NCBI GenBank assembly: GCA_022508345.1
Contig: JAFLVK010000001.1
Span: 292,371-356,370 of the forward strand
Length of the DNA: 64,000 nt
Source: Clostridiales bacterium
GTDB taxonomy: Bacteria > Bacillota > Clostridia > Christensenellales > CAG-314
Direction: 5' to 3'
Part shown: piece by piece, positions 6,935-61,732 of the stretch
How positions within the stretch are numbered: the stretch's first letter is position 1
How the letters are laid out: each line of letters begins with the position of its first letter
Notes under the pieces: generated by a model
Database searches by the model: none
What the model saw: the letters and a program-made list of their open reading frames with translations, nothing else
What the model was told of the DNA's origin: nothing
Translations under genes and position numbers: made by a program

Positions 6935-7969
6935 TTATACGCCCTTCAACAGTAATACGGTGAAGGTGCTGCCCTCACCAAGCTTACTGTCCACAAATAT
7001 TGTGCCGTCCAGCAGCTCCACAATTTTTTGAACAATGCTGAGACCCAAGCCGTTGCCGGGCGTAGTGTGCGACTTGTCCCCTTGGAAAAATTTGTTGAAA
7101 ATGTTAGCTTTGGTTTCTTCGTCCATGCCGCAGCCTGTGTCCTGCACTTCTATCACGGCATTTAGCCCCATGGAGCGGCATTTTACCGTTATTTTTCCGC
7201 CCTCATCAGTAAACTTTACAGCGTTGGACAGCAAATTTACAATTACCTGGCTTAGCAGCTTGTAGTTACTGTTGAGCTTGATTGGTTCCAGTTCAATGTC
7301 CAAATCAATGCCCTTGCTTTCGCACTGCTGCTGAAACATAAGCACACATTGGCGAATTTGCTCGTCCAACAGGTACTGCTCCTTGGTGATTTCCTGGCTG
7401 TCCAGCCTGTTTAGCAACAGCACGCTTTCGGACAGCTCGACAAGTCGGTTGGATTCGTCGATGATTACGTCAAGAAATTCGTTGCGCTGCTCGGGTGAGA
7501 GGCTGGGGTCCTTCAACAGCTTGGCAAAGCCGGATATGGAAACGATAGGCGTCTTGAACTCGTGTGAGAAATCGGACACAAAGTTTTCGCGCAAGGTTTC
7601 AACGCTGTCCAATTGGGAAACCATATGATTGAAGTTCTTGGCTAAGCCGAGATTGGCAAACACCTTGCTGTCCTCAATGCGGATGGAGAAGTCGCCCTCC
7701 GCCACCTTTTGCAGTGCGTTTAGGTAAGGTCTGCTTGCGCGCACTATTATTGCCGAATAGGCAAAGGACAGCGCCACACCCAATACGGTGCTTATGGCAA
7801 GGGTGATTACAGCAAACAGCAGAATGTTGTTTTCGGCAATGCCCGTTTCCGCTGCGATAAGTGATGACAGACCGAATGTAATGACCATAGTGAGGGTTAG
7901 CATCACAAACAGACACAGTACTACAATTAACGTGATTCGGCTAAAAATGTTTCTCTTTCTTTTACTCAT
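6935..7969 (-). CDS. Sensor histidine kinase (HAMP-HisKA-HATPase)
   Basis: Two N-terminal TM segments, H-box FVSDFSHEFKTPI, and G-boxes DTGCGM and GNGLGLSIV. Confidence 0.9.
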   Translation of the reverse strand: MSKRKRNIFSRITLIVVLCLFVMLTLTMVITFGLSSLIAAETGIAENNILLFAVITLAISTVLGVALSFAYSAIIVRASRPYLNALQKVAEGDFSIRIEDSKVFANLGLAKNFNHMVSQLDSVETLRENFVSDFSHEFKTPIVSISGFAKLLKDPSLSPEQRNEFLDVIIDESNRLVELSESVLLLNRLDSQEITKEQYLLDEQIRQCVLMFQQQCESKGIDLDIELEPIKLNSNYKLLSQVIVNLLSNAVKFTDEGGKITVKCRSMGLNAVIEVQDTGCGMDEETKANIFNKFFQGDKSHTTPGNGLGLSIVQKIVELLDGTIFVDSKLGEGSTFTVLLLKGV

Positions 7970-13765: not shown

Positions 13766-13807
13766 CGTCAATTATAAAAGCCAAATCAACATCACACATT
13801 ATCTACT

Positions 13808-13929
13808 AGTGAGGGGTTAGAAGCGAGCAAGACGAGGCAAACGAGCATTTCCAAGGGAGCGTACTAGGCGTACGTGACCGCAGGAAAGCGGAGTTTAACA
13901 AAGTATTGCGACGCTTATAAGCCATCACT
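13808..13929. repeat. Structured repeat, copy A (overlaps the dnaE stop codon)
   Basis: Shares the blocks TTAGA, GGAGYGTACTA, GCGTACRTGAC and AACAAAGYAT with copies B and C. Terminal arms AGTGAGGGGTTA / TAAGCCATCACT. Confidence 0.8.
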
Positions 13930-16900
13930 TCTCGAAGAAGATTACGTTCTTTTCGCCCAGTATTCCTGCCAGTTCGTACTCGATACCGGGGCACTTGCGC
14001 ACACGTCTTTCCAGTTCGTAGTTTTTACCCTCAATGCGAATTTTGACGGGAATTTCGCCCTCATAAGAGCGAAGCGTGTCCATGACCTTTTCGTATTTTT
14101 CGTCGTCACGCTCATCCATCTTGAGCCACAGGGTAATGTTTTTTGTGGGCTGTTCCGCAGTGGGCTCGGGAACCTTGCTGCTTTCCGTGCGCGGGTTTAT
14201 CAGCTCGCGGACGTTAATTTTGTAGGCGTCGCGCGATTCCGTTATCATTCCCTTGACAACTACAAATGCGTCTTCGGCAAAAAGGTTTTTGTATTTTTCG
14301 TACGTCGGGCCGTACAAGCTGATTTCAATTGTGTCGTACTTGTCTTCCAACACACCAAACGCCATGCGCTGGTTGTCCCGCCCTACGGCTACACGGATGT
14401 CGCGCAGTATGCCACCTGTGGTAACAAAACGCTTGGCAACCTCGGGGCGCACAGGTTCGCCGTCCTCCGACCCGTCGGGTACGTATGCCATTGTCTCCGA
14501 CGTGTTGAAGTCAAACAAAAACCGCTTGGCAATGTCGTCGTAGTCGTCCAGCGGAGAGCCGGTCATATACACGCCCAGCACCTCGTTTTCAAAGCTGTAC
14601 AGCACCTGCTTGGGAAATTCCTTTACCTGTTCGCGCTGAGTTCTCGTTGTTGTTTTAATTTCCGGCACAAGGTCGAAAATGGAGATTTGCCCAGTTGCGT
14701 GCTTCTTGTTGCTTTCCGACACTTCGTTGAGCTCCTCAACGTACCATTGCAGCATATCGGCACGGGTACGGTTGAAGCAATCGAACGCGCCGCCCTTGAT
14801 AAGGTTTTCCACCATGCGCTTGTTTATGAAACTGAAGCACCGTTCAAACAGGTCCGTCATGTCCTTAAATTCGCCGTTAGCTTCGCGTTCGTCCACAATC
14901 TGCTTGACAATGCCAACACCAATGTTGCGGATACCGCCCAGCCCGAAACGTATTGCGCCGTTCTCCACGCGGAACTCGTCGCGGCTCCTGTTGATGTCGG
15001 GGGGAAGCACCTCAATGCCCTGCGACTTGGCGTAAGCCATGTACTTCTTTATTTGCGATATATCGCTGATACGGTTGTTCAAAAGCGCGCAAATAAATTC
15101 AACCGGGTAGTATTTTTTGAGGTACGCCGTTTGGTACGTTACGTACGCGTAGCAGGTTGCGTGCGACTTGTTAAATGCGTACTGCGAAAAGTCGTCAAGC
15201 TGCTTGTATATTTCCAGCGCTACGTCCTCGGGGATACCGTTCTTCACGCAACCTGGTACCGTTTCGCCGTTGGTCCACGTTCCGCCGTGTACGAACAGCT
15301 CGCCAAGGTCCTTCATCATTTGCGCTTTCTTTTTGCTCATGGCGTAGCGCACGTTGTCCGCAAGAGCCATGGAAAAGCCCGCAAGCTTTTGCACAAGCTG
15401 CATAACCTGCTCCTGGTAAACGATACAGCCGTTGGTTACGGCAAGTATGGATTCCATAGATGGGTGCAGATATTTTATCTTGGATTTGTCGAACTTGCAA
15501 TCTATGTAGTCGCCGATGTACTGCATAGGTCCAGGACGGTACAGGCTGATTCCTGCAATAATTTCTTCCAAGTGGGTGGGCTTCATCTTGCGCATAAGCT
15601 CGCACATGCCGCCACTTTCCAGCTGGAAGATACACATCGTGTCGCCGGAGCTGATAAGCTCGAATACCTTTTGATCGTCGTAGTTGTCCTGCGCAAAGTC
15701 TATCCTTACGCCGTGGTCCTCGTAAACGTAGTCGCAGGCTTTCTTGATGTCGGTGAGGGTTCTCAGCCCCAAGAAGTCCATCTTGAGTAGCCCCAGCTCC
15801 TCCACCTCTATCATGTTGTACTGGGTTGTAACAATGCCGCCCTTAGCTAGGCTACCGCCGTTTGTCTGCAAAGGAACGTGGTCGGACACCTTTTCACGGC
15901 AGATAACTACGCCCGCCGCGTGCATGCCCGTTTGCCTGGGTGAGCCCTCAAGGCGCATTGCAATGTCAATGAGCTTGTGCGTAGCAGGGTCGTTGTAGGC
16001 GGCAACAAGCTCTTCGGAAATGTAAGTGTCCGCTTCTTTTTTGTATTTTTTGAGCCCCAGTAGATGTTTTAATGTGTATTTGAAATTGTCGGGCACCATC
16101 TTTGCAAGACGGTTGGATTCCGCAATGGGCACACGCAGTACGCGCGCCACGTCGCGAATGGCGTTCTTGGCTGCCATGGTGCCGAATGTGACAATCTGAC
16201 ACACGTTGTCGTTGCCGTACTTGTCGTGAACGTAATCGATGACCTCGCCGCGCCTGTCCATGCAGAAGTCCACGTCGAAGTCGGGCATGGATTTACGCTC
16301 GGGGTTTAAGAAACGCTCGAACATAAGGTTGAAACGGAAGGGCTCCACCTCGGTGATACCGATGAGGTAGGCGATTACACTGCCCGCGCCACTTCCGCGC
16401 CCAGGACCTACCGGGATACCGTTGGTCTTGGCGTAGTTGATGAAGTCCCACACGATGAGGTAGTAATCGACAAAGCCCATGTCGCAAATTACCTTGTATT
16501 CGTAGTCGATCCTGTCCAAGATTTCTTGGCTTGCATTGGGATATTTCTTTTTCAGCCCCTCATCTACCAGGTAACGGAGGTACTCGGGTGAGGACATGTT
16601 GTTGGGCGGAGTGTACAACGGCAGCAGCTTTTCCTTGCCGAAATCCACGTTGCACTTGTCGGCAATTTCAAGGGTTGTATCCATTGCGTCGGGCAACTTG
16701 GGGAACAAAAGCGCCATTTCGTCGTAGCTTTTGAGGTAGAACTCTTCGCCTTGGAATTTCATTCTGTCCGTGTCGTCAAGGTATTTGCCCATCTGTACGC
16801 ACATCATGACGTCCTGTATTTCCGCGTCCTCTCTGTTTAGGTAGTGAACGTCGTTTGTAACAACAATCTTTATGTTGAGCTTGCGTGCCAATTCCACAAG

Positions 16901-29345: not shown

Positions 29346-29921
29346 TTAGTTGTCAAATGATATGCGAAGCTTTGCCCTGCGGTTGAGTACAACCAGTGGC
29401 AAAAACGCCACCGCAAACAGTACAACATTGCACACTATCTGTGTGATGTAGAAGCTGCCTCCGCTAACGTACATCACGGCAAAGCGGTGGAAGTAGTTGT
29501 CCAAGTCAACAAAGAAGCCCTTGCCTGTGTAGCCCACAAGCGTATCCACGGCGGACGTTACCACGCCGAACAATGTTGTGAGCACTGCCGCGGTGAGCGT
29601 GGCTACTGTTATCTCCACGCCCTTGTGCTTGAAGCAAGCTTTGCCCAGCAGCCAAAAGGCAAGCGCAACCGTGTTCCAGTGAATGAGGTAGGATATAACC
29701 CAAGTGTTTACACCCCATATAGCCACGTCCACTACAATAAATACGTTGACGGCAGGGAACACCACCACAGCCCCCCACACATATGCGCACAAGGCTATCA
29801 GTAGCGTTACCACTTCGATGTTGGGCAGTACCGCAAGCGCTTGCTTTCCGCCGACAATGAGAGCAGCGTACATTGCGCTAACGGCAATGAGCAAAGCGTT
29901 GTATTTAGTTTTTTGTTTCAT
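29346..29921 (-). CDS. Small polytopic membrane protein, ECF S-component-like (CbrT-like candidate)
   Basis: 191 aa, about 6 TM. 1-nt overlap (TAATG) with the upstream DUF4430 gene. Lies downstream of a cobalamin riboswitch. Confidence 0.45.
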   Translation of the reverse strand: MKQKTKYNALLIAVSAMYAALIVGGKQALAVLPNIEVVTLLIALCAYVWGAVVVFPAVNVFIVVDVAIWGVNTWVISYLIHWNTVALAFWLLGKACFKHKGVEITVATLTAAVLTTLFGVVTSAVDTLVGYTGKGFFVDLDNYFHRFAVMYVSGGSFYITQIVCNVVLFAVAFLPLVVLNRRAKLRISFDN

Positions 29922-30430
29922 TACCAGGTTTGAATTTCGAAGTAAATGATTGCGCCGTTTTCAACGGACATTCCGCTAACGCCGTACTGTGAGTAACCTA
30001 CGGTAACGTCGCCAATCAAATAAGCGGTTGCACTAGCACCCACGCCTTGGTCCTTTTCCACACTGGTGTAAACAGCTACGTATTCGTGTGCGTCAGCGTT
30101 CGGCTGAAGTCCGCCGATGTCGTTGAGCCACTTGCCCGTGTCGCTGTCCGTCCAATCGACAGTTAGCATATCCTGTTGTACAAGGTAGCTGATTACTCCC
30201 TCCACCGTGGTCGCATCCGTGCCGCTACCACCCAGCGTAACTATGTGCGCCGTGTAGGTGTTGTTTCTGTTTTTGATTATGACAGCCATTTGATTGTCCT
30301 TCATTTCGGGAAGCGTTAACTCGGTTAACTCCACCGTCTGAGGCTTGTCAACACATGCGACAAGAGCAACAGTTGAAACAACCAACACAGCTACCAAAAT
30401 CCACGTCAGTAGTCTTTTTGTGTTTTTCAT
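29921..30430 (-). CDS. DUF4430-type lipoprotein (transcobalamin beta-domain-like)
   Basis: Lipobox ALVAC. GVISYLVQQDMLTVDWTDSDTGKWLNDIGGL resembles DUF4430. Confidence 0.65.
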   Translation of the reverse strand: MKNTKRLLTWILVAVLVVSTVALVACVDKPQTVELTELTLPEMKDNQMAVIIKNRNNTYTAHIVTLGGSGTDATTVEGVISYLVQQDMLTVDWTDSDTGKWLNDIGGLQPNADAHEYVAVYTSVEKDQGVGASATAYLIGDVTVGYSQYGVSGMSVENGAIIYFEIQTW

Positions 30431-30490
30431 GTTTTGTCTCCTTTTGTTTTTTTAACTGCAACACAACTTAACAAAAGCAAAATCACTCTT

Positions 30491-30619
30491 GTTTGAGACG
30501 ATTAGAAACGAGATAGGCGCGACGCGCAAGGCTTTTGCGAGGGAGTGTACTAAAGCGTACATGACCGAGCAAAATACGAAGCGCAACAAAGCATATCGAT
30601 GTTTATAACCGTCTCAAAC
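30491..30619. repeat. Structured repeat, copy B (inside the riboswitch leader)
   Basis: Perfect arms GTTTGAGACG / CGTCTCAAAC. Internal blocks TTAGA, GGAGTGTACTA, GCGTACATGAC and AACAAAGCAT. Confidence 0.8.
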
Positions 30620-30750
30620 GGTTGGGCGTTCGGACTTGTTCCTCACCTTGGCAACAGGCAAGGCTTTACCGTAGCGGGACTGTCAATGAATTTCACATTG
30701 TTTCCCCGTAAATGCGCACTGCTTGCGCAACCCGTAGTTATATGCGGTTG
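30618..30750 (-). promoter_or_regulatory. Cobalamin (B12) riboswitch aptamer
   Basis: The minus strand reads GGGGAAACAAUGUGAAAUUCAUUGACAGUCCCGCUACGGUAAAG (conserved core) and AAGUCCGAACGCCC (B12-box-like). Confidence 0.75.
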
Positions 30751-30757
30751 TGAATAT

Positions 30758-30786
30758 ATTTTACAACAGAATCTTGTTGTTGACAA
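30758..30786 (-). promoter_or_regulatory. Promoter of the riboswitch-controlled operon
   Basis: TTGTCA, 17-nt spacer, TAAAAT on the minus strand. Confidence 0.5.
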
Positions 30787-30812
30787 CAAAAAACCCCGCA
30801 CTGAATGCGGGG
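30787..30812 (-). terminator. Terminator after the DUF5050-like lipoprotein gene
   Basis: ccccgca-N5-tgcgggg with a U-run on the minus strand. Confidence 0.8.
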
Positions 30813-30830
30813 TTTAATAGTTGCAAATTG

Positions 30831-43261: not shown

Positions 43262-43310
43262 TATTCTTCCTGTTAGATGTTTTTTATTAACAATTTAAAT
43301 ATACCGAAAT

Positions 43311-43435
43311 ATTGAGGTGGTTAGATGCGAGCAAGACGAGGCGCGCGAGGAAAACTCGAAGGAGTGTACTAAGCGTACATGACTGAAAGTTGCCACAGCG
43401 CAACAAAGTATTGCGACGCATATCACCGCCTCAAT
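43311..43435. repeat. Structured repeat, copy C (overlaps the prfB stop codon)
   Basis: Arms ATTGAGGTGGT / ACCGCCTCAAT. Internal blocks as in copies A and B. Confidence 0.8.
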
Positions 43436-44525
43436 AAAGTTTCTGTAGGTAATCTTCGATAAAGGGCTGAATATTGCCGTCCATGACGTCTTCGACGTTG
43501 GAGTTTTCAAAGCCCGTGCGGTGATCCTTGACAAGCGTGTAGGGACAGAACACGTAGGAGCGAATTTGGCTACCCCATTCTATCTTTTTTATCTCGCCCT
43601 TCAACGACATCGCTTCTTCCATTTGTTCGCGCTCCTTGAGCTCCGCCAGCTTGCCGCGCAGCATGTTCATTGCCTGTTCGCGGTTTTGTATTTGACTGCG
43701 TTCGTTTTGGCAGGCAACCACAATACCTGTGGGCAGGTGCGTAATGCGAATTGCGCTTTCCGTCTTGTTGACGTGCTGTCCGCCTGCACCGCTACTACGA
43801 TAGGTGTCGATTTTCAAGTCCTTGTCTTCAATTACAATTTCGTTGTCCTGTACCAATTCCGGCATAACCTCAAGGGAGGCAAAGCTGGTGTGCCTGCGCT
43901 TGTTGGAGTCGAACGGAGAAATACGCACCAAACGGTGAACGCCCTTTTCCGCTTTCAAGTAGCCGTAGGCGTTGGTGCCGTTCACCTGGAAGGTTACCGA
44001 CTTGATACCTGCCTCTTCGCCGTCAAGATAGTCCAGCACAGCAAGCTTGTAACCGCGACGTTCGCAGTAGCGCGTGTACATTCGGTAAAGCATTGACACC
44101 CAGTCCTGCGCTTCCGTACCGCCTGCACCCGCATGTAGGGTAAGTATTGCGTTATTTGCATCGAACTTGCCGGACAGCAGGGTTGCGATACGCATTTCGT
44201 TTACCTGGGCGCTGATTTGTGCAAGCTCCGATGCCGTTTCCTCCAGCATGGCTTCGTCACCGTCGCACATAGCAAACAGCTCGGTAACGTCATTTAAGCG
44301 CTTGCTGAGCTTGGCGTAGCTGTTGATCTTGTCCTCGATGTTGCTGGCGCGCTGGCTTACCTGTTGGGCGTTTTTCACGTCATCCCAAAAATCGGGCTTG
44401 TGCTGCTGTTCAACAAGGGCTTGTAACTCGCTTTGCAGCTTTGGAATGTTAAGGCTTTCACCAATACCCGCAAGCTTGGTTTGCAAATCCTTAATATTTA
44501 GTTTTAGTTCCTCAATTTGTATCAT
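43431..44525 (-). CDS. prfB: Peptide chain release factor 2 (single ORF, no frameshift)
   Basis: 364 aa. SPF tripeptide in RISPFDS, GGQ in SGAGGQHVN. The N-terminus is continuous through the usual frameshift position. Confidence 0.95.
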   Translation of the reverse strand: MIQIEELKLNIKDLQTKLAGIGESLNIPKLQSELQALVEQQHKPDFWDDVKNAQQVSQRASNIEDKINSYAKLSKRLNDVTELFAMCDGDEAMLEETASELAQISAQVNEMRIATLLSGKFDANNAILTLHAGAGGTEAQDWVSMLYRMYTRYCERRGYKLAVLDYLDGEEAGIKSVTFQVNGTNAYGYLKAEKGVHRLVRISPFDSNKRRHTSFASLEVMPELVQDNEIVIEDKDLKIDTYRSSGAGGQHVNKTESAIRITHLPTGIVVACQNERSQIQNREQAMNMLRGKLAELKEREQMEEAMSLKGEIKKIEWGSQIRSYVFCPYTLVKDHRTGFENSNVEDVMDGNIQPFIEDYLQKLY

Positions 44526-50941: not shown

Positions 50942-51105
50942 AATAAAAGCGTCCTGCCCTATGACAAGACGCAAAATCTTCCTTTCGCAGTCCCATCTGT
51001 CGGCGCTCGCCGTGCAGGCGATTGCCGCGGAATTTAGCACCTAATAAAAGATTTTTAGGTTGCTGTGGCGTCATCAAGTCCGTCTCTCGACCACTCTCGA
51101 TAGGG
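50942..51105 (-). promoter_or_regulatory. SAM-I (S-box) riboswitch with terminator
   Basis: The minus strand reads UAUCGAGAGUGGUCGAGAGACGGACUUGAUGACGCCACAGCAACC ... AGGUGCUAAAUUCC ... CAGAUGGGA. This is followed by the hairpin GCGUCUUGUC/GGCAGGACGC plus UUUUAUU. Confidence 0.88.
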
Positions 51106-51114
51106 TTACGGCTA

Positions 51115-61496: not shown

Positions 61497-61573
61497 GGCG
61501 GCGTAGCTTAGATGGTTATAGCGGCCGGTTCATACCCGGCAGGTCGTTGGTTCGAATCCGACCGCCGCTACCA
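61497..61573 (+). tRNA. tRNA with CAU anticodon (Met elongator or Ile2), CCA encoded
   Basis: Hand-folded cloverleaf. Acceptor GGCGGCG/CGCCGCT, anticodon arm GCCGG-TTCATAC-CCGGC, T arm GTTGG-TTCGAAT-CCGAC. Confidence 0.85.
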
Positions 61574-61578
61574 AACAC

Positions 61579-61653
61579 GGCTCCTTGGTCAAGCGGTCAA
61601 GACATCGCCCTTTCACGGCGGTAACACGGGTTCGATTCCCGTAGGAGTCACCA
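61579..61653 (+). tRNA. tRNA-Glu (UUC), CCA encoded
   Basis: Acceptor GGCTCCT/AGGAGTC, anticodon loop CTTTCAC, T arm ACGGG-TTCGATT-CCCGT. Confidence 0.88.
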
Positions 61654-61656
61654 TAT

Positions 61657-61732
61657 GGGGAGTTAGCTCAGTTGGGAGAGCATCTGCCTTACAAGCAGGG
61701 GGTCACAGGTTCGAGCCCTGTACTCCCCACCA
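61657..61732 (+). tRNA. tRNA-Val (UAC), CCA encoded
   Basis: Acceptor GGGGAGT/ACTCCCC, D arm GCTC-AGTTGGGA-GAGC, anticodon loop CTTACAA, T arm ACAGG-TTCGAGC-CCTGT. Confidence 0.9.

Follow-up and report, generated by a model that had tools for sequence, protein, structure and literature searches.

Class-II cobalamin riboswitches use tertiary kissing-loop contacts, and those of the env8 type are said to combine an L5–L13 kissing loop with an expression platform acting at the level of the ribosome-binding site (RBS). [quoted passage not shown] A structured repeat within a riboswitch leader is described for the trp operon of Streptococcus pneumoniae, in which a BOX repeat lies between two T-box riboswitches and regulation is retained (Croucher et al. 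2011, PMC3049150). The 64,000-nucleotide stretch analysed here (the window; positions 292,371–356,370 of contig JAFLVK010000001.1, assembly GCA_022508345.1, from a Clostridiales bacterium of the CAG-314 lineage) contains three copies (A, B and C) of a rod-like hairpin repeat, and copy B is situated between the aptamer of a cobalamin riboswitch and the operon downstream of it. Copy B is very probably an autonomous rod that was inserted beside the P1 helix of the aptamer and is tolerated there as a passenger, rather than the output domain of the switch. The insertion itself is of modest interest, and the repeat family to which it belongs is the more interesting subject.

On the minus strand the locus reads, in order, the terminator of the upstream gene, a promoter-like site, the cobalamin aptamer, the 129-nt element, 47 nt of leader, the RBS (AAAGGAGA, 30444–30437) and the ATG at 30430. 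The text GTTTGAGACG...CGTCTCAAAC spans 30491–30619 and has one match in the window against 0.00 expected. Copy B itself is placed at 30491–30618, with boundaries certain to within ~2 nt, and its better-folding strand is the plus strand, antisense to the operon. It scores 113.9 bits (match at 30488–30620) with R1, a purpose-built covariance model seeded on one subfamily and used to realign the other copies. The predicted fold has −46.7 kcal/mol on the transcript (minus) strand (z = −6.9) and −51.6 kcal/mol on the plus strand, and the rod carries a near-invariant apex (GGAGUGUACUAAAGCGUACAUGAC; 30542–30565, plus strand) with tandem G·A/A·G and a G·U around a 5-bp stem. The initial annotation had quoted the minus-strand text ...AAGUCCGAACGCCCAACCGUUUGAGACGGUUAUAAAC, noted that no U-tract follows the element and put the RBS about 45 nt further on; the quotation matches, there is no T-run of five or more between the aptamer and the ATG, and the RBS begins 47 nt past the element.

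Ten orthologous leaders were compared, that of the window and nine others (L119–L122 and L124–L128) reached through homologs of the lipoprotein encoded by the first regulated gene; a metagenome scan with this lipoprotein gave one distant relative only, and the leaders came from exact-protein look-ups. Model R1 detects the element in the window and in L119 (113.9 bits), L120 (75.4 bits) and L128 (70.7 bits), whose lipoproteins have identities of 99%, 82% and 79%. It does not detect it in the remaining six, L121, L122, L124, L125, L126 and L127 (77%, 69%, 64%, 61%, 64% and 50%, respectively), all of which have the aptamer. Filled leaders read CCCAAC(C/T)G | (T/G)TTGAG...CTCAA(A/C) | ... and the empty site reads CCCAACTGACGTTAG..., and their alignment places the insertion junction directly 3′ of P1. 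Of the two possibilities raised in the initial annotation, this filled and empty series with a junction right after P1 bears out the first, in which a riboswitch leader has taken up a repeat and tolerates it. The insertion would have occurred in the ancestor of a small clade of uncultured Clostridia.

The leaders without the element show what a platform at this locus looks like. Four of them (L121, L125, L126 and L127) have a conventional terminator downstream of the aptamer, with T5–T8 coming straight after a hairpin of −9 to −15 kcal/mol, and the element-bearing L120 and L128 keep a terminator of the same kind downstream of the element. Element-free leaders with a conventional terminator are the first of the two findings that, taken together, the initial annotation had said would refute it. 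No hairpin with a U-tract is found in the leaders of the window, L119, L122 and L124, and as these comprise element-bearing and element-free leaders alike, terminator loss and the element are not linked. The apex of the element decays at this locus, being mutated in L120 (GUUUAC...GUAAUG) and deleted in L128.

Within the riboswitch orthogroup the platform thus varies, with a hairpin and U-tract in six leaders and none in four including the window. All ten leaders share G(C/T)(A/G)GTTGAAT ~15 nt before the Shine-Dalgarno (SD) sequence, and most contain a hairpin-forming box, AGAGCATTTCTTCGATGTAAAGATAG.

The aptamer including P1 occupies 30619–30735 (minus strand), with L5 corresponding to GUGAAAUUC and the B12-box region to AAGUCCGAACGCC. 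Every testable feature of its sequence identifies it as a member of the AdoCbl-II (adenosylcobalamin) family: Rfam RF01689 (clan CL00101) matches 30616–30724 on the minus strand at 42.6 bits, above the gathering score of 36.5 (E = 7e-9, local search), and the structure match of the lipoprotein described below puts it upstream of a cobalamin-related gene. P1 is formed by 30735–30728 and 30624–30619(18) (strands ACGG[G]UUG and CAACCGU) and P2 is the hairpin 30727–30715. Six equal-length orthologous leaders show compensatory changes in both P1 (CG5/UA1 and GC4/AU2) and P2 (GC4/AU2 and AU2/GC2/UA2), two compensated pairs in each helix, and 94.8% of cells in the two helices are paired compared with at most 38% when the partners are slid. 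The register that Rfam itself gives for P1 (AAGCAG/CCGUUU) probably arises because its model lacks P2. The P1 pairing proposed initially therefore holds in sequence and is backed by the compensatory changes; its position does not, as the 5′ strand ACGGGUUG lies at 30728–30735 and not at 30733–30740.

These alignments also fix how far P1 and the element overlap. The initial annotation took G30619 as the first base of the element, but leaders without the element also have this G (CAACCG|C in L124 and CAACTG|A in L122); G30619 is therefore part of the native P1, and the pair using U30618 is kept in only three of the six leaders, so the true overlap between P1 and the outer helix of the rod is 1–2 nt.

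This overlap bears on the second possibility raised initially, that the element has been co-opted as the expression platform, such that ligand-dependent closure of P1 competes with a small hairpin and the outer helix of the rod and the signal passes to the RBS. Nucleotides are indeed shared among the 3′ strand of P1, the small hairpin and the outer helix, the window and L119 lack the terminator platform of their relatives, and one coincident change in L128 keeps the small hairpin. The small hairpin (AACCGUU-UGA-GACGGUU; 30607–30623, minus strand) exists as described with −5.9 kcal/mol, although it is dwarfed by the rod at −46.7 kcal/mol, and the claim that P1, the small hairpin and the closing helix exclude one another is literally true, but the conflict is energetically trivial. 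The full leader (30745–30405) was folded with P1 free, forced or forbidden. Pairs 4–14 of the outer helix of the rod have p ≥ 0.9 in all three P1 states, with only the outer 2–3 pairs changing, and the mean unpaired probability of the SD is 0.90, 0.91 and 0.91 with P1 free, forced and forbidden, respectively. The small hairpin appears in none of the free or constrained ensemble structures; it could form only transiently at best, before the 3′ arm of the rod is transcribed, and once the rod has zipped the predicted end state is identical with or without ligand.

An expression platform would be expected to contain a pairing of comparable stability that overlaps the P1 3′ strand substantially, to be conserved along with its aptamer and to include a U-tract or the RBS. 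Here the overlap and the energies are as given above, the element is absent from six of ten leaders with its apex decayed in two of the four carriers, and the rod holds no T-run of five or more and leaves the RBS outside. L120 and L128 carry the element yet retain the conventional platform beyond it, L121, L125, L126 and L127 have that platform and no element, and L122 and L124 have lost the terminator without having the element. Taken with a rod and an SD exposure that are indifferent to the state of P1, this makes co-option of the element as the output domain very unlikely.

How the switch might work around a tolerated insertion is suggested by the closed form of the element. The element would fold on itself as a closed hairpin that brings both of its ends together, and the aptamer and the downstream leader would then stay adjacent in a three-way junction of P1, the rod and a downstream hairpin, so that switching could continue around the insertion. 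The native output in most relatives is the hairpin and U-tract; this terminator has been lost in the lineage of the window, and independently in two element-free relatives, and any control remaining in the window would thus have to act at the RBS through the ~60 nt after the element. Directly after the rod a 9-bp hairpin, AACAAGAGU-GAUUUU-GCUUUUGUU (30470–30493, minus strand), is predicted in all of the free and constrained folds. As read from the sequence, its GAUUUU loop is complementary to the GAAAUU of L5 with two G·U pairs, and the hairpin is a candidate for a P13-like part of the native platform. Further on, AACAAAAG and the SD GGAGA (30437–30448, minus strand) lie together, and AACAAAAG can pair with CUUUUGUU in the 3′ arm of this hairpin (30477–30470), a possible alternative helix close to the RBS. 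The post-rod hairpin and the SD-side pairing are plausibly the remnant of an RBS-level platform of the class-II type; no covariation was found among the orthologs for the L5–L13 kissing loop or the pairing of the post-rod hairpin.

The same region is where a third reading must be weighed, namely that the switch is weakened or dead in the lineage of the window, the insertion and the loss of box and terminator having uncoupled the aptamer and left the leader as a regulatory relic. Neither the window nor L119 has a terminator or the conserved post-aptamer box, and the predicted accessibility of the SD is ~0.9 in all states, as would be expected of a relic. However, the aptamer remains above the Rfam gathering threshold with a core nearly identical to those of the orthologs, the hairpin with the L5-complementary loop follows directly after the rod, and short terminator-less leaders also occur without the element (L122 and L124), suggesting a working RBS-level variant. 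A dead switch is accordingly unlikely, if somewhat less so than co-option of the element.

An internal promoter within the element would offer the operon a different way round the riboswitch, through transcripts lacking the aptamer. Copy B does contain a promoter-like TTGAGA-16-TATGCT on the operon (minus) strand (30617–30590), matching at 9 of 12 positions, but this is a weak match within a hairpin of great stability. Promoter-like sites occur in 1% of family copies compared with 3% of shuffles, and an internal promoter is therefore not a property of the element family. The match in copy B is probably due to chance, and a bypass of the riboswitch from this site is extremely unlikely.

Several points weigh against the view of copy B as a tolerated passenger. 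Secondary-structure folding ignores co-transcriptional kinetics and tertiary kissing-loop contacts. In the window and L119 the conserved post-aptamer box and the terminator are both gone, so their leader has been remodelled, and a new role for the rod in this remodelled leader stays conceivable as far as sequence alone can tell. A C-to-U change in the P1 3′ strand of L128 coincides with a G-to-A change in the adjacent arm of the element, such that the small hairpin is preserved; this is one event and is compatible with chance. Finally, the element has been kept at the riboswitch site over ~20% protein divergence without deletion.

Copy B is one member of a family of rod-like hairpins of ~125–135 nt. 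The window contains exactly three copies, all in the same orientation and scoring 110–115 bits with model R1 (the next match has 11.6 bits); the other two are copy A (13803–13932, plus strand), with a terminus holding the TGA stop of dnaE (13925–13927, minus strand), and copy C (43307–43437, plus strand), with a terminus holding the TGA stop of prfB (43431–43433, minus strand). Beyond these, a scan with the apex pattern, using one genome per species, gave at least 118 loci, and model R1 finds at least 140 copies in 100 loci. Carriers among the listed loci are mostly uncultured gut Clostridia or Christensenellales, with several copies per metagenome-assembled genome (MAG). Copies B and C have no match in Rfam 15 even in a permissive search (E up to 5), and a literature search with the apex sequence returned nothing relevant and no paper describing the family.

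Complete copies are 118–135 nt long and their secondary structure is well supported by covariation. Compensatory changes are seen at 19 of the 29 pairs of the canonical subfamily, and across 140 model-aligned copies 94.7% of cells are paired compared with 66% in shuffles and at most 43% with partners slid; double-change cells number 961 against ~253 in shuffles. RNAalifold applied to all subfamilies together recovered the apical hairpin only, because MAFFT had misaligned the arms. Conservation is highest at the apex and not at the ends. There is almost no variation in the apex, GGAG-YGUAC-U-NNN-GC-GUACR-UGAC, yet covariation is seen in its 5-bp stem (CGUAC/GUACG, CAUAC/GUAUG and UUUAC/GUAAA), and the flanking G·U is kept in 35 of the 42 copies that were not ascertained via the search pattern. 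The strand with GGAG...UGAC folds better in 106 of 116 copies, with a mean advantage of 10 kcal/mol, and wobble pairs favour it by 120 to 56. The arms on their own fold no better than shuffled sequence (−0.18 and −0.17 kcal/mol per nt, respectively), compared with −0.44 for the whole rod.

The 24-nt apex also occurs with quite different arms in MAGs labelled Rikenellaceae/Alistipes, Alphaproteobacteria/Holosporales and Thermodesulfobacteriota, an assignment that goes by MAG label only; loci of such MAGs labelled as other phyla include L007, L021, L030, L037, L049, L057, L063, L067 and L068. Several loci hold three to five copies within 8 kb, almost always co-oriented, and tandem triplets with a period of ~136 nt, as well as nested or truncated copies, are seen at L064 (2487–2891), L031 (~7420–7640) and L099 (6912–7124).

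Many copies are placed at the ends of genes. An opposite-strand open reading frame (ORF) of 100 codons or more has its end at the 3′ terminus of the element in 45 of 82 copies; a same-strand one does so at the 5′ terminus in 5 of 82. The terminal helix opens with the stop codon as its first triplet (TAA, TGA and TAG in 33, 21 and 11 copies, respectively), and the better-folding strand is antisense to the gene whose stop adjoins the element. Because such triplets are equally frequent at both termini, they do not account for the orientation rule. Insertion polymorphism is seen at prfB, which encodes release factor 2 (364 aa in nearly all relatives): the filled site in the window and in L129 (91% identity) reads TAT TGA G... 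with a full element, and the empty site in L130 (89%) reads TAC TAA followed by a 13-nt spacer and no element. The post-stop spacer of a further prfB ortholog (L131, 2293–2400; 92% identity) starts with TAT TGA GAC, resembling an element terminus, and model R1 finds no element; this spacer may be the footprint of an excision or a copy that has decayed.

Of 34 multi-copy loci, 31 have their copies in one orientation, and the folded strand lies on the strand of negative GC skew in 68 of 82 loci. There is no target-site duplication (TSD), direct matches in the flanks being as frequent as in mismatched-pair controls apart from tandem copies. All-against-all clustering of the ORFs around the at least 118 loci gave housekeeping orthologs only and no recurrent neighbouring protein, a parent autonomous IS with the same termini was not found in ~0.9 Mb of flanking DNA, and the family has no match in the viral contig, phage or plasmid collections searched. 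Upstream of the riboswitch promoter of L128 lies the frameshifted remnant of an IS200-type Y1 (HUH) transposase (617–936), the only transposase-like sequence seen near any copy, and tblastn with this remnant gave no further match.

Copies of different subfamilies occupy the same locus in different genomes, as in the L128 copy compared with copies A and B of the window and in L129 (2288–2419) compared with copy C. The L128 copy (1212–1330) is a chimera, with an interior like that of copy A and a P1-proximal end like that of copy B, which suggests gene conversion. On sequence grounds the mixture of subfamilies at one locus suggests either that copies convert one another or that insertion has recurred at identical sites.

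There is perhaps an even chance that the family is a strand-specific element acting at the single-strand level and mobilised in trans, with a lifestyle like that of REPINs or of the IS200/IS605 family and with stop-triplet termini that let it sit exactly at ORF ends. Two observations run counter to this proposal: no mobilising enzyme was found, and the folded strand lies on the chromosome strand opposite to that expected from the IS608 paradigm. A bolder and rather unlikely proposal is that these repeats are no junk palindromes but strand-specific structured elements of a new class, which home to stop codons or are under selection there, and in which the apex would bind a widely conserved partner acting on single-stranded DNA or antisense RNA and the terminal triplet and its complement would define the position at the ORF end; copy B would then illustrate how the end of a helix such as riboswitch P1 can substitute for the end of an ORF.

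The operon beside copy B has the features of a separate transcription unit. The upstream gene (507 aa) has an intrinsic terminator (30791–30815, minus strand) with an 11-bp stem followed by a T-run, and its position just upstream marks the riboswitch operon as a unit of its own. The promoter-like TTGTCA-17-TAAAAT of this operon (30758–30786, minus strand) is identified by sequence match and has equivalents at the same place in orthologs (TTGTCA-17-TA(C/A)AAT in L120, L121 and L125, and TTGTCA-17-TATAAT in L127). The first regulated gene (29921–30430, minus strand) encodes the 169-aa lipoprotein and the second (29346–29921, minus strand) a 191-aa multi-pass membrane protein; neither product has a match in Pfam, NCBIfam or PDB sequence searches. 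The two genes are syntenic, and are followed by proS, in every relative whose sequence extends that far.

An AlphaFold model of the lipoprotein, made with 47 homologs as input, has a pLDDT (predicted local distance difference test score) of 89.3, and Foldseek matches its fold to the cobalamin-binding beta-domains of transcobalamin, haptocorrin and intrinsic factor (E = 9e-5 to 3e-3) and also to 3u7z, a chain from Ruminococcus gnavus described in its deposition as a putative metal-binding protein. With the transcobalamin matches a B12 riboswitch upstream makes biological sense, and the lipoprotein as modelled probably belongs to an unannotated family of bacterial transcobalamin-like proteins that bind B12. 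The AdoCbl-II switch would then control a B12-uptake operon of a transcobalamin-like lipoprotein and a membrane protein. Elsewhere in the window are an S-adenosylmethionine (SAM; S-box) riboswitch (50990–51106, minus strand; 63.5 bits) and a cluster of three tRNA genes (61497–61729, plus strand), both unrelated to copy B.

Copy B represents a natural experiment, in which a 129-nt autonomous hairpin has been placed in the linker after P1 of a cobalamin switch and has persisted over ~20% protein divergence. For engineers and annotators of riboswitches it indicates that a closed helix can bridge the distance between aptamer and platform, and that a long leader is not necessarily all platform. It also comes from an orthogroup in which the platform is changeable, with at least three losses of the terminator. 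The repeat family is uncatalogued, and its traits (covariation, an apex in MAGs labelled as multiple phyla, exact placement at stop codons of core genes in one orientation, antisense folding and lack of a TSD) have not been described together; finding the partner enzyme or RNA could reveal a new mechanism of mobilisation or of 3′-end function.

Among riboswitch leaders the closest parallel to copy B is the BOX repeat of the trp leader, as both are structured repeats inside a riboswitch leader that are co-transcribed and fold independently, with regulation intact in the BOX case (PMC3049150). They differ in that BOX repeats are modular (boxA, boxB and boxC), specific to streptococci and unrelated in sequence, and in that the BOX repeat lies between two complete riboswitches whereas copy B lies between an aptamer and its platform. 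The riboswitch itself resembles the env8 type in its AdoCbl-II match, the short post-P1 hairpin with a loop complementary to L5, the nearby RBS and the lack of a terminator in the window. Unlike that type it has a 129-nt rod within the P1–P13 linker, its kissing pairing is only inferred, and most of its orthologs use a terminator.

The repeat family shares with ERIC, Correia/NEMIS and RUP repeats (reviewed in PMC10969869) the form of an imperfect palindrome of 100–160 bp that is intergenic, transcribed, often at the ends of genes and able to form a long RNA hairpin. Those repeats have conserved terminal inverted repeats and target duplications (e.g. TA), are found in either orientation and do not extend beyond a genus or family, whereas the element has no TSD, a fixed orientation and an apex in MAGs labelled as several phyla. 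Like a MITE it has many copies, terminal inverted repeats and insertion polymorphism, the riboswitch locus and prfB each having filled as well as empty sites, but it lacks the TSD that defines a MITE. Integron attC sites (R″/R′ = RYYYAAC ... GTTRRRY) were rejected, the termini being (T)TGAG.../...CTCA(A) and the copies lying 13–17 kb apart beside housekeeping genes; attC sites and the bacterial selenocysteine insertion sequence (SECIS) had both come into question through the position at the stop codon, and both were rejected on account of the terminal sequences, the occurrence of all three stop codons, the spacing of copies and the folding strand.

With REPINs and their RAYT transposases (Bertels and Rainey 2011; bioRxiv 10.1101/2022.05.22.493013) the family has in common ~100-nt chromosomal hairpin repeats in many copies that are specific to a genome or lineage, mostly vertical inheritance, the absence of an adjoining transposase and a location after genes. 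A REPIN joins two REP hairpins in inverted orientation and is conserved at its ends but variable in between, whereas the arms of the element are unfolded on their own and its apex is the most conserved part. The element does not fit the definition of a REPIN, there being no REP sub-hairpins and no GTAG/CGTC tag seen at the termini by eye, with no formal search made for the latter.

Similarity to the IS200/IS605 family lies in the lack of a target duplication, the dependence on hairpins, an orientation tied to the chromosome strand and the co-orientation of neighbouring copies, and the element family does show the combination of no TSD with replication-linked strand orientation. IS200/IS605 elements have two subterminal hairpins and a conserved 4–5-nt target 5′ of the left end, in contrast to the one continuous rod here, and the better-folding strand of the element is on the C-rich strand, opposite to the prediction from IS608. 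A defining feature of the IS200/IS605 family is thus missing, no shared motif upstream of the stop triplet being evident by eye in the listed copies, with no formal motif test made. The element is a variant of the structured palindromic repeats, one that resembles both REPINs and the IS200/IS605 family in lifestyle but lacks defining features of each.

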